NCBI GenBank assembly: GCA_017513085.1
Contig: JAFWDK010000021.1
Location: forward strand, 1 to 23,105
Direction: 5' to 3'
Length of the DNA stretch: 23,105 bases
Source: Clostridiales bacterium
Lineage (GTDB): Bacteria > Bacillota > Clostridia > Saccharofermentanales > Saccharofermentanaceae
How positions within the stretch are numbered: the stretch's first letter is position 1; each line of letters starts with the position of its first letter. The notes below the pieces were generated by a model. That model was not told the DNA's origin. It worked only from the letters and a program-made list of their open reading frames with translations, and made no database searches. Below, one piece after another: positions 3,001-7,164 of the stretch. A program made the translations under genes and the position numbers.

Positions 3001-4203
3001 ATGAAGCAGGATTCCCGGTTATTCAAGCAGATCAAATTGAAGTTTGAGAAGCTTTTCCAGAAGAAGAGAAAGGACGACGGCGTCTCGATCTCCAAGGGAA
3101 GTTCTTTTTCTGAACCCGAAGGCTCCTTCGGTAAGGCAGAGGATCTGGCAAATGTCTGGTCCTTGGACAGTTCAGACTCCAATGTTTCTGAGTATAAGGT
3201 GAAGAGATGGCCGAAGATCGTGATCGCTGCCAGTGTTTTCGCAACGATCATGCTGGTGGTTTTCCTTCTGTTGCCGAAGATCCTGCCGGGCTTTTTCAAA
3301 AACACGGATATTGCGCTGTTTGTGGAAGTGGATCCGGTATATATTTACGACGACACCTATCGCGTCGTGACCTCGTATTGTACAAGCTTAATGGAAAAGG
3401 ACGATGTGACCAGTCACAGGATCACACAACTTCTGATGAATGAGCCGGTGCATTATTTGACTGATGACTGCAAAAACGGTTACGTGCTGGTCCGGACCAT
3501 GGATAACTTTGTCGGATATGTTAAAGCAGAGGATCTCAGCGCGGATATGACATCCTGTGAACCGGATCTGCATCTTTTTAAATTGGTTATAGCGGATGGA
3601 TCCAAGCGTGTAATGTCCCATGCAAGTAACGGAACACTGATCGCAGAGGTCATGATGAATACCGTGCTTTACGCCGACGTAAAGAGAGACGGTGTGTATC
3701 AGGTGTGCCTGCCGAACGGAGAGACCGGCTGGATCAGTTCGAACGGTGTAGTGGAACTCGGTCTTACGGAGAAGACGGAAAAGGTCGGTGTGCGTTATTT
3801 CGTCAGCTCGATCCTTACGATGGTGAATTCTACCTATCTCGAGGGCGGGCTTACTGAGAGAGGCATCTCTATGGAAGGTCTGGCCTTTGTTTCCGCTGCG
3901 GTAAATGGTATAGATATTCCGAGAGATATGGAAGGTCAGATGAATAGCGGGGAACCTGTCCAACTCCAGTATGATGCCGTGACCGGCGAACTTCTTCTGG
4001 ACAGTATTATTCCAGGTGATCTGGTATTCCTGTCGGATCCGTATCATCCGGAGAGCAAGCGAGTCTATGAAGTGGGTGTATGCACGGATACCGGTGTGAT
4101 CCTTATGAGATCCGACAGCGGGACATCCGTAAAGCTCCGTTCTTTTACGGCGAATTCAGACATCGTCAAGAGGATCATTGCCGTTCGAAGAGTATTCTCC
4201 TGA
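3001..4203 (+). CDS. Membrane-anchored SH3 + NlpC/P60-like protein, catalytic residues apparently degenerate
   Basis: TM segment (IVIAASVFATIMLVVFLLL); SH3-like segments (TQLLMNEPV...NFVGYV, YQVCLPNGETGWI); C40-like Y-x-x-GG...IPRD...Q...PGDLVF. Confidence 0.7.
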   Translation: MKQDSRLFKQIKLKFEKLFQKKRKDDGVSISKGSSFSEPEGSFGKAEDLANVWSLDSSDSNVSEYKVKRWPKIVIAASVFATIMLVVFLLLPKILPGFFKNTDIALFVEVDPVYIYDDTYRVVTSYCTSLMEKDDVTSHRITQLLMNEPVHYLTDDCKNGYVLVRTMDNFVGYVKAEDLSADMTSCEPDLHLFKLVIADGSKRVMSHASNGTLIAEVMMNTVLYADVKRDGVYQVCLPNGETGWISSNGVVELGLTEKTEKVGVRYFVSSILTMVNSTYLEGGLTERGISMEGLAFVSAAVNGIDIPRDMEGQMNSGEPVQLQYDAVTGELLLDSIIPGDLVFLSDPYHPESKRVYEVGVCTDTGVILMRSDSGTSVKLRSFTANSDIVKRIIAVRRVFS

Positions 4204-5412
4204 TCACTTTTTTCTGCTGAGATAGTATTCGTGCTTCAGACTTTTAAAGCCCATGCGCTTGATATCTTCATATGTGATTCTGTAATTGCCTTTATAGTGG
4301 CGTCCTTGGTATAGATAGCGGACGTATTCGATTAGATAGGCATCCAGGTCCGAAAGGCTTTTATCTGTGGTGATCACGGGGAAAAACCAACGGCTCCAGG
4401 TAAAGCAGTCTTCGTTTTTTTCGTTATAGAATTTTCGGTTGAAAGTCCGTATCAGAGCACGTCCTGCACGGGAGTAGTCCGCATCATTCTTTGTCTTCCA
4501 GCGAAGGAGAGCCTTGGCCTTCCGGCGGATCTTCCCTTTGAGTTTGGCTTTGGTCACGGATGATATATCCACCTGGCCGTCTTTGTAGCAAAATCCGAGA
4601 AATTCCCATGGTTCGGAAGGCGCGGAGATGGAGATCTTACTTGGATTTACGGAGAGTCCTTTTGCAGAGACCATAGCCATAAAATCGGATATGTGAGCAT
4701 CCAGATCCTCTTTCGTCCTTGCGAAGATCAGGATGTCATCGGAATAGCGGAAATAGGAAACTCCTTTGTTTTCGAAAAAACGATCCATAGACAGAAGGTA
4801 CACGTTGGCGAAAAACGGAGAGACGGGAATGCCGGCCATAGCGCCACGGTGTTCGGTGATGATGCTTCCGTCTTCCAGACGGCTTTCGTTTTGCAGCAGA
4901 AGCGTTTTCAGAAACCACATCAAAGACGGGTCGTCGTCGACGATCTCCTGAAGTACGGATACAAGAGATTCTTCCGGAATCGAATTAAAATAATTCGAAA
5001 TGTCTGCTTTGAAGCAGTAGAGGGAATCCCGGTCCTTCTGGCTGAGGATCGCAAAAATGGCATCTCTCGCTGAGCAGGATCTCCGAAAGGAAAAGCACTT
5101 GGGCGAAAGCTTCTCGTCGTAACGATAGAGTAGATATCCCAGACATTTCAAGAACAGATTCTCGTCATCCGAGAAAGTATAAATTACGCGTTTTTTCGAG
5201 GTGCCGCTCTTGTTTACCGTCCTTTTCATAGGAGGAAAAAAGCAATAGTTTCCACGGCATAGTGCCTCGGCGATAGGTAAATAACGCTTCTCGCCAACAT
5301 ACGAAGAGAGTGCATCCCGTTCCCGTTTGGAAACGTAATGACCATCCAGTTTATATTTGAGAAAATTCTGCCAGGTCGTTTCAAGCAAGAGTTGTTCCAG
5401 AATCGGCGGCAT
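4204..5412 (-). CDS. Stand-alone RNA-directed DNA polymerase (group II-like reverse transcriptase)
   Basis: RT motifs: NKSGTSKKRVI, CFSFRR, KADISNYFNSI, GAMAGIPVSPFFANVYL, YFRYSDDILIF (YSDD at 4735-4746), LSVNPSK, EFLGF. Thumb/X-like C-terminus (WSRWF...LSDLDAYL). No endonuclease domain. Confidence 0.92.
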   Translation of the reverse strand: MPPILEQLLLETTWQNFLKYKLDGHYVSKRERDALSSYVGEKRYLPIAEALCRGNYCFFPPMKRTVNKSGTSKKRVIYTFSDDENLFLKCLGYLLYRYDEKLSPKCFSFRRSCSARDAIFAILSQKDRDSLYCFKADISNYFNSIPEESLVSVLQEIVDDDPSLMWFLKTLLLQNESRLEDGSIITEHRGAMAGIPVSPFFANVYLLSMDRFFENKGVSYFRYSDDILIFARTKEDLDAHISDFMAMVSAKGLSVNPSKISISAPSEPWEFLGFCYKDGQVDISSVTKAKLKGKIRRKAKALLRWKTKNDADYSRAGRALIRTFNRKFYNEKNEDCFTWSRWFFPVITTDKSLSDLDAYLIEYVRYLYQGRHYKGNYRITYEDIKRMGFKSLKHEYYLSRKK

Positions 5413-5439
5413 GCGTTATTCCAAGTTCCTTCCTTCCAA

Positions 5440-5647
5440 AATAAAAAGAAGAGAAACAGCTTTGAAACAAGCATGCTTGTTTTACCGGATCTGAACCCGT
5501 ACCGGTTACCTGCAAAACCGGGAAATTCCCTAAAGATACAGGCTTGATCCATCGCAGGTGCGATCACCGCATTTCTCTTCTTTATATATCGCACATCAGA
5601 TGTACTGATGGAGACGATCTGTAATATAACTTTCCTCTAATCTGATT
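5440..5647 (-). ncRNA. Putative RT-associated structured non-coding RNA
   Basis: 12-bp perfect inverted repeat 5445-5456/5572-5583 enclosing hairpins at 5465-5482, 5484-5506, 5509-5542 and 5551-5564; a further 5' hairpin at 5582-5629. Lies between a predicted promoter and the RT start codon. Confidence 0.65.
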
Positions 5648-5653
5648 ATCTTG

Positions 5654-5682
5654 AGAATACCATAAAAAGCAGTGTTTATCCA
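5654..5682 (-). promoter_or_regulatory. Predicted sigma-A promoter for the ncRNA-RT unit
   Basis: Minus strand TGGATA-17 nt-TATTCT with extended TG (TGgTATTCT), just downstream of the trkH stop. Predicted start about 5647. Confidence 0.5.
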
Positions 5683-5691
5683 CAATGAGAA

Positions 5692-7164
5692 TCATTTGTC
5701 CATATGAACGTTTTTGGCAATCAATGGTTTTCTGAAATAGAGCTTCGGATGGAAAAGGATCAGAAGCGGGAACAACTCTAAACGACCGGCCAGCATATCG
5801 AAGATAAGAACGACCTTGGACAGGTCGGAAAAGTGCGAATAATTCTGTGTGGATCCGACAAGCTCGAGACCCGGACCGATGTTGTTGATCGTAGCTGCTA
5901 CGGCGGTAAAAGAAGTGATCAGACCTTTGTTGTCGATAGAAACGAGAAGAAAGGAGGCAGTAAACAGGATCAGAAATGTGATGATATAGACATTCACCGA
6001 GCGCGTGACCTCGTGCTCGACAGGATTTCCATCGATGCTGATCTTTGAGACGGATTTCGGATATACATAAGACTTGAGTTCACGACCAAGGGATTTGATC
6101 AGGATTATGAAGCGGGAGACCTTGATACCACCACCTGTACTTCCGGCACAAGCGCCGATGAACATGAGAGTGACAAGGATCGCCTTACTGGTCTCCGGCC
6201 AAAGGTCAAAGTTCATGGAAGCAAAGCCGGTCGTCGTGATGATCGACGCGACCTGAAAACTGGAGTGACGGAGGGCAGCCCAGAAACTCCCGACCTGATA
6301 AAGAATGTTTGTCGTGATGATCGCAATCGATGCCAGAATAATCAGAAGGTACACACGTACTTCGCTCATTCGGAATGCTTTTTTGATGTGACGGTAAAGA
6401 AGATAAAAGTAGAAATTAAAGTTGATGCCGAAGAGGATCATGAAAATGGTCACGACCCACTGGATATATGCGCTCTGGCTGACCATGCTGTCGTTTTTGA
6501 CACCGAATCCGCCTGTGCCTGCCGTGGCAAAAGAACTGCATATACTATTAAACAGGGACATTTTGCCGAGGACGAGAAGAAGTGTCTCCATTGCAGTCAG
6601 CGTAAAGTAGATCAGGTAGAGAAGCCGGGCGGTCTGGCGCATCTTGGGAACGAGTTTCCCGACAGATGGTCCGGGGCTCTCAGCACGCATGAGATTGATA
6701 TTTGAACCGCCACTCATAGGAATTACGGCCAAAAGAAAAACGAGAACACCCATTCCGCCCAGCCAGTGAGTAAAACACCGCCAGAATTGGGAGGCGTGAG
6801 AAAGGATCTCGACATTGGGCATAATGCTGGCACCGGTGGTCGTGAAACCGGAGACCGTTTCAAAGAATGCGTCAAGAAGCCCCGGTATTTCGCCACTGAT
6901 ATAGAAAGGAAGTGCGCCGACTAAACTCATAACGATCCAGGAAAACGCGGTGATCACACAGCCTTCTTTCAGGTGAATAGTGGCGCTTTTGGGTTTCTTC
7001 ATAGAAAAAAGAGTTCCGAGAAGAAAAGTACAAATGCCGAGTATAGCGAAAATGATTCCGTTATCTTCTTGATACAAGAGTCCGATAAAAGCAGGAAGAA
7101 GCATGAAGGCACCCTCGATCTGAAGGACATGACCCAGTGTGGAGATGATCATGGGATAATTCAT
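5692..7164 (-). CDS. trkH: Trk potassium uptake membrane protein
   Basis: FFETVSGFTTTG, WLGGMG, ATAGTGGF, TTTGF, GSTGGGIK, NNIGPG and MLAGRLE signatures; polytopic membrane protein. Confidence 0.95.
   Translation of the reverse strand: MNYPMIISTLGHVLQIEGAFMLLPAFIGLLYQEDNGIIFAILGICTFLLGTLFSMKKPKSATIHLKEGCVITAFSWIVMSLVGALPFYISGEIPGLLDAFFETVSGFTTTGASIMPNVEILSHASQFWRCFTHWLGGMGVLVFLLAVIPMSGGSNINLMRAESPGPSVGKLVPKMRQTARLLYLIYFTLTAMETLLLVLGKMSLFNSICSSFATAGTGGFGVKNDSMVSQSAYIQWVVTIFMILFGINFNFYFYLLYRHIKKAFRMSEVRVYLLIILASIAIITTNILYQVGSFWAALRHSSFQVASIITTTGFASMNFDLWPETSKAILVTLMFIGACAGSTGGGIKVSRFIILIKSLGRELKSYVYPKSVSKISIDGNPVEHEVTRSVNVYIITFLILFTASFLLVSIDNKGLITSFTAVAATINNIGPGLELVGSTQNYSHFSDLSKVVLIFDMLAGRLELFPLLILFHPKLYFRKPLIAKNVHMDK

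Follow-up and report, generated by a model that had tools for sequence, protein, structure and literature searches.

What does a reverse transcriptase (RT) gene do when it sits between ordinary chromosomal genes and is preceded by a strongly folding leader? The question is raised by a 23,105-nt stretch of DNA from a Clostridiales bacterium (GenBank assembly GCA_017513085.1, contig JAFWDK010000021.1, positions 1 to 23,105 of the forward strand; hereafter the window). An earlier note, made from the letters of the window, had proposed an RT with a cognate structured non-coding RNA (ncRNA), possibly an undescribed class. Here, we find that the pairing stands while the class is not new: as judged by profile and covariance-model searches, the locus is a UG26 RT (Mestre et al., 2022) together with an Rfam RT-5 RNA (RF03026; Weinberg et al., 2017), both of them already catalogued, in a reduced architecture that lacks an accessory gene, c1, found next to the RNA in relatives. 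We think it rather probable that the two parts, a Class 2 UG26 RT and a pseudoknotted ~140-nt ncRNA, make up a ribonucleoprotein that produces RNA-templated complementary DNA (cDNA).

The RT is assigned to UG26 by profile scores

The RT gene (Table 1) is, as the earlier note had read it, an intact frame, with RYSDDI at residues 222–227. Its placement is by profile scores. The PADLOC model RT_UG26 (PDLC03764) matched with an E value of 2.3e-152 and 505.4 bits, residues 4–401 of the RT aligning with positions 3–397 of the 398 in the model, compared with 122 bits for the next-best PADLOC RT group, RT_UG27. UG4, UG17 and Drt9 followed (RT_UG17, 95 bits; Drt9, 92 bits), and the PADLOC retron RT models scored far under UG26. 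Pfam reported RVT_1 and an overlapping RdRP_1 match on the same palm region and nothing else, which is the Class 2 architecture. On these scores the RT is a member of UG26, a Class 2 group of the UG/Abi RTs. The family-specific N- and C-terminal regions are conserved and under purifying selection, and a C-terminal residue, Y381, is a tyrosine in 67 of 72 UG26 sequences and never a phenylalanine.

UG26 was described with 35 members, nine of them beside a COG2852/YcjD-like protein, and its defence prediction was rated 'inconclusive' (Mestre et al., 2022; PMC9226505); the main-text passages of that survey, supplements aside, name no ncRNA for it. The family found here is far larger, with 247 representatives of 50%-identity clusters at E ≤ 1e-30 and 514 metagenome loci confirmed among 600 pattern matches checked. 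In the literature searched, UG26 together with reverse transcriptase was met only in the survey and in a cold-seep virome paper, which lists UG26-type RTs on predicted viral contigs (PMC10504277).

Three side observations concern the family. Long 'fused' homologues (radical SAM-RT, LRR-RT and double RT) look like gene-call run-ons. For a divergent UG26-like subgroup (G025, G027, G029, G030 and G049), the match starts near profile position 45–52 in most members. Lastly, a second partial RT-like frame in the window's own genome (G000:C25:2486-2773, minus strand, near a contig end; 46 bits to RT_UG26 in a 156-aa open frame) is probably another RT type.

The leader carries an extended RT-5 RNA with covarying pairs

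The RT and trkH are separated by 279 nt, in agreement with the ~280 nt given in the earlier note, which had also described the leader as folding extensively. The folding is concentrated in a single element: the 149 nt at 5439–5587 (minus strand) fold at -55.6 kcal/mol with z = -5.62 (0 of 200 shuffles as good), whereas the whole leader reaches z = -2.38 only (4 of 200 shuffles as good). The Rfam RT-5 match within this element spans positions 1–104 of the 104 in the model. Only 40 nt separate its end from the start codon of the co-oriented RT gene, and nearness to an RT gene is how the motif class was defined. A genome-wide search found the RNA as a single copy. Between 3500 and 6500, Rfam at E ≤ 1 returned RT-5 and one chance snoRNA match, and no group II intron RNA, retron or other family.

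The motifs RT-1 to RT-19 were reported as lying near RT genes, with their role unassigned and retrons as a possibility (Weinberg et al., 2017; PMC5737381). RT-5 by name does not occur in the main text of that paper, supplements aside, and 'RT-5 RNA', 'RT-5 motif' and 'RF03026' were not found in the literature searched. An explicit pairing of UG26 with RT-5 was likewise not found in print (main texts only, supplements aside).

When the 300 nt upstream of the RT were aligned across the genus, the Rfam core proved to be flanked 5' by an invariant AAGAAGAGAAA and 3' by an invariant UUUCUCUUCUU. Since these two are reverse complements, an outer helix, P1, was built into a covariance model, R1 (158 positions, 38 pairs). 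R1 was searched in 100 sources, and 91 matches at E ≤ 1e-4, of which 88 were distinct, were aligned; the window RNA scored 155.2 bits over the full length of the model (1–158). Across the 88 sequences, standard pairs filled 96.2% of the pair cells, compared with 73.5% after shuffling (0 of 500 shuffles reached the observed value) and 44–52% when partners were slid, and 40 of the 44 pairs changed on both sides. A conserved upstream structure in homologues, which the earlier note had set as a check on its own proposal, is therefore present. The nested helices lean towards R1, because the alignment was fitted to that model, but the pseudoknot does not. The 27 pairs with the highest mutual information were all annotated pairs.

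Read from this alignment, the RT-5 RNA is ~140 nt long, longer than the Rfam model, and is enclosed by P1 and the pseudoknot. P1, hairpin P1a, the pseudoknot and several candidate tertiary pairs are additions to the Rfam model, which, by the structure line of cmscan, lies inside P1 and leaves the pseudoknot strands unpaired. All 12 base pairs of P1 covary, with 98.6% of cells paired; the pair types are almost only A-U and G-C, the 5' strand staying purine and the 3' strand pyrimidine, and the U-tract that follows is conserved in 85–90% of sequences. The pseudoknot is paired in 99.4% of cells, and five of its six pairs change on both sides, though it lies outside the covariance model. In P5, all six pairs covary, 99.0% of cells are paired, and the pairs have the highest mutual information in the alignment. 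P5 and P1 are linked by J5/1, a 10-nt joint in which UUYAAA is conserved and one A is invariant in 88 of 88 sequences. Other conserved unpaired bases are a UU before the pseudoknot loop, a GUAC after P3 and a GU after P2. The candidate tertiary pairs (columns 68-114, 51-173 and 78-160, plus a base tracking a P1 pair) come from mutual-information counts alone. Repeats of the RNA were sought within the 3.06-Mb genome: no 16-mer of the RNA region had a second copy apart from a palindrome counted twice. Tandem dimers of 7–12-nt J5/1 units were absent, and four 6-nt units occurred once each as dimers, which is at chance level.

Genome comparisons reveal an RNA-RT coupling that works in trans

The Rfam RT-5 RNA lay upstream of the RT in 19 of 20 and in 4 of 4 loci of two genome sets. 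Among 75 metagenome loci whose RT is 41–75% identical to the window RT, 65 had a full-length R1 RNA upstream on the same strand, adjacent in 62 and at 153–2495 nt in three; three further loci had too little flank and one had none, and the other six are weighed below.

The sister genus, whose RT is ~40% identical, departs from this arrangement, as 20 of its 30 loci had no RNA within 1.5 kb. Nevertheless, each of five sister-genus genomes without an RT-adjacent RNA held exactly one RT-5 copy elsewhere, scoring 86.6–91.2 bits with the Rfam model. The detached RNA was on the contig and strand of the RT, 4.0–7.3 kb upstream, in four of the five, and on another contig in the fifth; at two detached loci inspected, unrelated genes on the opposite strand lay between RNA and RT (GH43, LytTR and DUF7010 at one; HD, HAD and Fe-ADH at the other). 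Furthermore, the RT-5 RNA was not found in any of nine RT-free genomes of the family. Because the RNA is detached yet kept in these sister-genus genomes and was not found in the RT-free ones, a purely cis-acting leader is ruled out, and at the level of these comparisons the coupling of RNA and RT works in trans.

At one metagenome locus (L123:1322-1489, minus strand), an RT-5-like RNA lies downstream of the RT on the opposite strand, and the contig breaks off upstream of this RT. The arrangement points to a second, convergent system or a rearranged locus.

The accessory gene c1 has been deleted from the window

When open reading frames (ORFs) from all loci were clustered, a gene of ~155–195 aa, c1, emerged directly upstream of the RNA and co-oriented with it. 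It occurs in 40 of 80 metagenome loci and at least 14 of the 22 genus loci; all 30 sister-genus loci lack it. The c1 product combines a conserved N-terminal MGLLDxL with a disordered linker and a ~100-aa C-terminal domain that has no conserved acidic catalytic residues. None of six c1 proteins matched a Pfam or an NCBIfam family, while four of six tested weakly matched PADLOC RTasCOG2852 (E 2e-4 to 4e-3); on this match c1 is filed only as kin of RTasCOG2852. The ESM Atlas gave DUF2726 and DUF559 at 0.83–0.85, which is under the level for more than leads. The best solved-structure matches of the c1 profile (c1 genes such as L018:843-1310 and L058:3320-3814) were to the RNA recognition motif of LINE-1 ORF1p and were not significant (E 0.03–0.35).

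In the window, 13 codons of c1 are left. Codons 5637–5599 are identical at 13 of 13 positions to the c1 of the closest relative, L018 (tblastn, E 1.8e-4), and no other c1 match was found in the window's genome at E ≤ 1e-3 (tblastn). Upstream of the remnant, 5667–5641 matches 776–802 of L018 (blastn, 92.6% over 27 nt), a stretch that in L018 lies just upstream of c1, and TTTATGGTATTCT also sits just upstream of the RNA in c1-less relatives. We observed that window 5596–5667 (minus strand), set against L018 776–1310, has the form of a clean internal deletion that left the last 13 codons of c1 fused to its upstream region. A different deletion, with no remnant kept, removed c1 from six other genus loci (L015, L016, L017, L019, L020 and L022). 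Purifying selection on the RT persists in c1-less lineages (omega 0.06–0.07), which indicates that RT and RNA are kept without c1. The COG2852-like partner is thus an optional feature of UG26, met upstream in some relatives but not in the window, and the statement in the earlier note that no effector gene is adjacent holds for the window but not for relatives, where c1 directly precedes the RNA.

The earlier note had also given the RT its own promoter ~240 nt upstream, which a promoter scan did not support: it returned one weak site (5720–5691), not above the 0.9 expected from shuffles. By eye, TGGATA-17 nt-TG-G-TATTCT can be read, with the -10 hexamer at 5659–5654, but the scan does not call a promoter there. 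Because 5667–5641 is homologous to the stretch upstream of L018 c1, the proposed promoter is plausibly the old c1 promoter. We also noted a hairpin, CAUCAG-N5-CUGAUG, at 5594–5610 (minus strand), which spans the c1 stop codon and is kept both in the c1-bearing loci of the genus and in the window remnant; a role in processing or stability, exerted from the 5' side of the ncRNA, is conceivable.

The locus is syntenic and vertically inherited within the genus

Downstream, the RT stop codon (4204–4206) touches the stop of a convergent gene with 0 nt between, as the earlier note had described. This gene matched SH3_16/SH3_3 and, under threshold, NlpC/P60 (16.8 bits, cut-off 23). Upstream, trkH is followed by trkA, and elsewhere in the window lie DnaD/DnaB_2-like and DnaC/IstB-like replication genes, acpS, a GNAT-aldo/keto reductase gene, rnf genes, a DUF4015 gene and a gene for a GGDEF protein. 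No defence or mobile-element gene was found among the 10 window neighbours. Ten neighbours from diverse loci comprised eight ordinary metabolic or cell-surface genes, two of unknown type and no defence or mobile-element gene; these are counts from a small sample and not a statistical test of enrichment. Relatives at E ≤ 1e-30 were absent from 72,556 plasmids and 50,697 phages, and none of 40 pattern-match stretches from IMG/VR was confirmed.

Apart from the window's own genome, 22 of 23 genomes of the genus and 31 of 35 of the family had RT_UG26, one copy each. It was present in 62 of 88 family genomes with completeness of at least 90%, in 41 of 63 sister-genus genomes, and in 18 of 398 genomes sampled across the class, 10 of these outside the family. 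One genome, G360, has two full-length UG26 genes (C32:27356-28543 and C63:19662-20846); every other positive genome has one. The same SH3/NlpC-like gene was convergent with the RT in 22 of 22 genus loci (L006-L027), and trkH was seen upstream in 14. Pairwise identities of the RT and of the NlpC-like protein were correlated (Mantel r 0.749, 0 of 2000 permutations as high), and dN/dS of the RT within the genus was 0.04–0.16, c1-less lineages included. By these measures the locus is vertically inherited in the genus, within a rumen-type group of Clostridia, and co-diverges with its neighbours. The earlier description of a system 'inserted among housekeeping genes' therefore fits the location but not the history.

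One species of the genus, scored as RT-negative, has an RT internally deleted to residues 1–53 and 374–402, with the RNA intact (L141, G014:C20:16485-19643, ~1500–1930; 158.6 bits with R1 and 72.6 bits with Rfam). Separately, window 8702–9345 matches L018 13–656, so that the gene upstream of c1 in this relative, whose RT is 87% identical, is the GNAT-aldo/keto reductase gene. As trkA-trkH is not at the corresponding place in L018, a local rearrangement is implied.

Table 1. Positions of the RT gene, the RNA parts, the c1 remnants and the flanking genes in the window.
Feature	Position	Strand	Basis
UG26-type RT gene, 402 aa, YSDD active site	4204..5412	-	ORF, PADLOC RT_UG26, Pfam RVT_1, dN/dS
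Purine-rich, putative Shine-Dalgarno-like stretch GGAAGGAAGGAAC ahead of the RT start codon	5425..5437	-	read from the sequence
Extended RT-5 ncRNA: P1, hairpin P1a, pseudoknot, P2-P3-P4 arm, P5 hairpin, J5/1, U-tract	5439..5587	-	model R1, fold z, covariation
Rfam RT-5 (RF03026) core	5453..5563	-	73.2 bits, gathering score 45.7, E 9.1e-14
P1 5' strand, all purine, AAAGAAGAGAAA	5572..5583	-	pairs with 5445-5456
P1 3' strand, all pyrimidine, UUUCUCUUCUUU, then U-tract	5445..5456	-	covariation
Pseudoknot 5' strand ACCUGC	5554..5559	-	pairs with P4 loop 5508-5513
Pseudoknot 3' strand GCAGGU in the P4 loop	5508..5513	-	covariation
P5 hairpin ACAAGC-AU-GCUUGU	5467..5480	-	covariation
J5/1, conserved single strand UUCAAAGCUG, candidate template	5457..5466	-	conservation; template role by analogy with the DRT9/DRT10 loops
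c1 remnant, last 13 codons EESYITDRLHQYI and stop	5596..5637	-	tblastn with L018 c1
c1 upstream/promoter-region remnant, -10-like TATTCT at 5654-5659	5641..5667	-	blastn
Convergent SH3 and NlpC/P60-like gene, 400 aa; syntenic flank, outside the system	3001..4203	+	Pfam
trkH; upstream flank, outside the system	5692..7164	-	Pfam TrkH 2e-59

Proposed mechanism

How might the two parts work together? All three studied Class 2 UG RTs, DRT2, DRT9 and DRT10, use an ncRNA template (10.1101/2025.10.16.682844). In these relatives, the RT binds a ~140-nt ncRNA, of which a short loop directly 3' to a boundary stem-loop is copied, with priming from the RNA 3' end in DRT2, an internal tyrosine in DRT9 and a C-terminal serine or tyrosine in DRT10 (10.1101/2025.10.16.682844). 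The locus shares with DRT10 (UG17) and DRT9 (UG28) an RT with an upstream structured ncRNA of ~140 nt, a stem-loop immediately 5' of a conserved single-stranded loop, and a conserved C-terminal tyrosine as a candidate. It differs in that the window RT is not a member of either group by profile, and in having no SLATT partner and no defence-island context.

The results above establish the family of each part, the fold of the RNA, the coupling in trans and the purifying selection; RNA binding, templating, the position of the template, priming and the biological role are inferred. By analogy with these systems, the RNA would bind the RT in trans as a scaffold and, most likely, as a template, and the RT would make a defined cDNA from a short single-stranded segment. 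Our best guess for this segment is J5/1, with P5 bounding its 5' side, and priming may start from a conserved C-terminal tyrosine such as Y381; we hold both of these details to be much less likely than the general model. In the window, the old c1 promoter probably drives the RNA, whose probable end is the U-tract after P1; the RT mRNA would then arise by read-through. Kinship would suggest an antiphage role, but the context here does not look like defence.

Several observations weigh against an RT that makes cDNA on the RT-5 RNA. By sequence, and among solved structures, group II intron RTs are nearer to the window RT than DRT9 (2.5e-24) or DRT2 (2.8e-18), and the DRT analogy is therefore not close. 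In six of the 75 metagenome loci, which had at least 200 nt of flank, no RNA match was found at E ≤ 1e-4. The RT-5 RNA was not detected in five of five genomes with divergent UG26-like RTs (316–370 bits), which may use another RNA or none. In the species with the internal deletion the RT is mostly lost, and it is thus dispensable there. A true metatranscriptome run gave a single 151-nt Logan contig over 5471–5621, for which DNA carry-over is possible, and none was seen over the RT or the flanks. Lastly, a DRT10-like A-B-A' realignment can be read in J5/1 and the start of P1 (GUUUC...GUUUC in the genus) and in nearly every sequence of the alignment, but this is low-complexity pyrimidine sequence and may arise by chance.

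A further, more specific version of the mechanism is suggested by the layout of the RNA. The core of telomerase RNA has a pseudoknot and an enclosing helix. In layout only, the window RNA resembles it, with a short conserved single strand beside a boundary hairpin, a pseudoknot and one enclosing helix; on the protein side, the RT profile picks up telomerase reverse transcriptase (TERT) at no better than E 2.5e-7, over the palm. UG26 and RT-5 might then form an enzyme of RT and RNA that bacteria inherit vertically and that acts as a minimal telomerase would: P5 would set the template boundary, J5/1 would be the template, and the growing DNA, with a C-terminal tyrosine as primer, would realign on the UUC-type start of the P1 3' strand to yield short tandem-repeat DNA with a cellular and not an antiviral purpose. 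We regard this as a long shot.

Alternative explanations

Could the locus instead be a decayed mobile retroelement, that is, a truncated group II intron, or a retron with the leader as its msr-msd? Group II intron and group II-like RTs are indeed the nearest solved-structure relatives by sequence (GsI-IIC RT, 5e-37) and share the fingers-palm region with its YxDD motif, and some homologues are annotated at source as 'group II intron reverse transcriptase domain-containing'. In retrons, too, an RT adjoins an upstream structured RNA closed by a long-range helix; the retron msr-msd is closed by a1/a2 inverted repeats, which P1 resembles, and the RT motifs were speculated to be retrons (Weinberg et al., 2017; PMC5737381). 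The RT nevertheless scored 102.7 bits with NCBIfam group_II_RT_mat, for which the cut-off is 300, and 58.1 bits with the retron St85 model, for which it is 235, and the retron and Drt2-5 NCBIfam models were further below their own cut-offs than the group II model. There is no GIIM maturase domain by Pfam, no intron RNA by Rfam and no room 3' of the ORF, and the C-terminal domain is a different one that is conserved within UG26. The VTG and NAxxH motifs of retrons and the GNxxSQ motif of diversity-generating retroelements are absent from the translation, which we read directly, in agreement with the earlier note, as is the exclusion of a group II intron. The window RNA has no long msd hairpin; one base beyond P1, a G behaves as half of a covarying base pair (G-C in 82 and A-U in 5 of 88), unlike what an invariant unpaired branch G would show; and with no 16-mer of the RNA recurring in the genome, the palindrome aside, there is no template repeat/variable repeat pair. 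Moreover, the full RT length is conserved and under purifying selection. We therefore consider decay from a mobile element very unlikely. Even less credible, in our view, is a leader that acts only in cis, as a terminator, attenuator or autoregulatory RT-binding site in the 5' untranslated region that controls RT expression. Such a leader would account for the spacing in the window and most loci, where the RNA precedes the RT start by 0–150 nt in the same orientation, and P1 with its U-tract resembles a terminator. This explanation does not fit the well-kept detached RNAs of the five sister-genus genomes or the many loci in which the RNA lies between c1 and the RT, and the pseudoknot, the candidate tertiary pairs and ~7 helices exceed by far what an attenuator needs.

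The same ribonucleoprotein could also serve a domesticated cellular role and not phage defence, for example in making repeat or signalling DNA, in DNA-end processing or repair, or in a telomerase-like activity; we hold this to be possible though on the whole unlikely. A cellular role would explain the near-core, single-copy and syntenic retention of the locus in the genus and family, and is consistent with the invariant SH3/NlpC-like flank, the correlated divergence of RT and neighbour, the low dN/dS, the setting among replication, AcpS, Trk and Rnf genes, the defence-free neighbourhoods of diverse loci, the lack of relatives in the plasmid and phage sets and of confirmed IMG/VR matches, and the 'inconclusive' rating in the survey passages cited above. 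On the other hand, the patchy occurrence across the class and in the sister genus is the pattern of an accessory gene, the RT is internally deleted in one species of the genus and c1 has been lost repeatedly, all characterised UG/Abi relatives are antiviral, and UG26-type RTs are listed on predicted viral contigs from cold seeps (PMC10504277).

Significance

UG26 is one of the UG/Abi groups whose role was left open in the founding survey (Mestre et al., 2022; PMC9226505). Here it is tied to a defined, trans-acting RNA of ~140 nt with a well-supported helix-enclosed pseudoknot fold, which gives precise ends and positions to mutate. DRT2, DRT9 and DRT10, the Class 2 relatives studied to date, have each turned out to make DNA of an unexpected kind. 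If the telomerase-like reading were true, bacteria would have in this helix-enclosed pseudoknot a counterpart of the telomerase RNA core. Genes presumed to act in defence are not usually near-fixed, syntenic and under purifying selection throughout a genus, as this RT is, and the repeated loss of c1 with RT and RNA retained is unusual too; together these points prompt one to ask whether the RT works for the cell and not for immunity.

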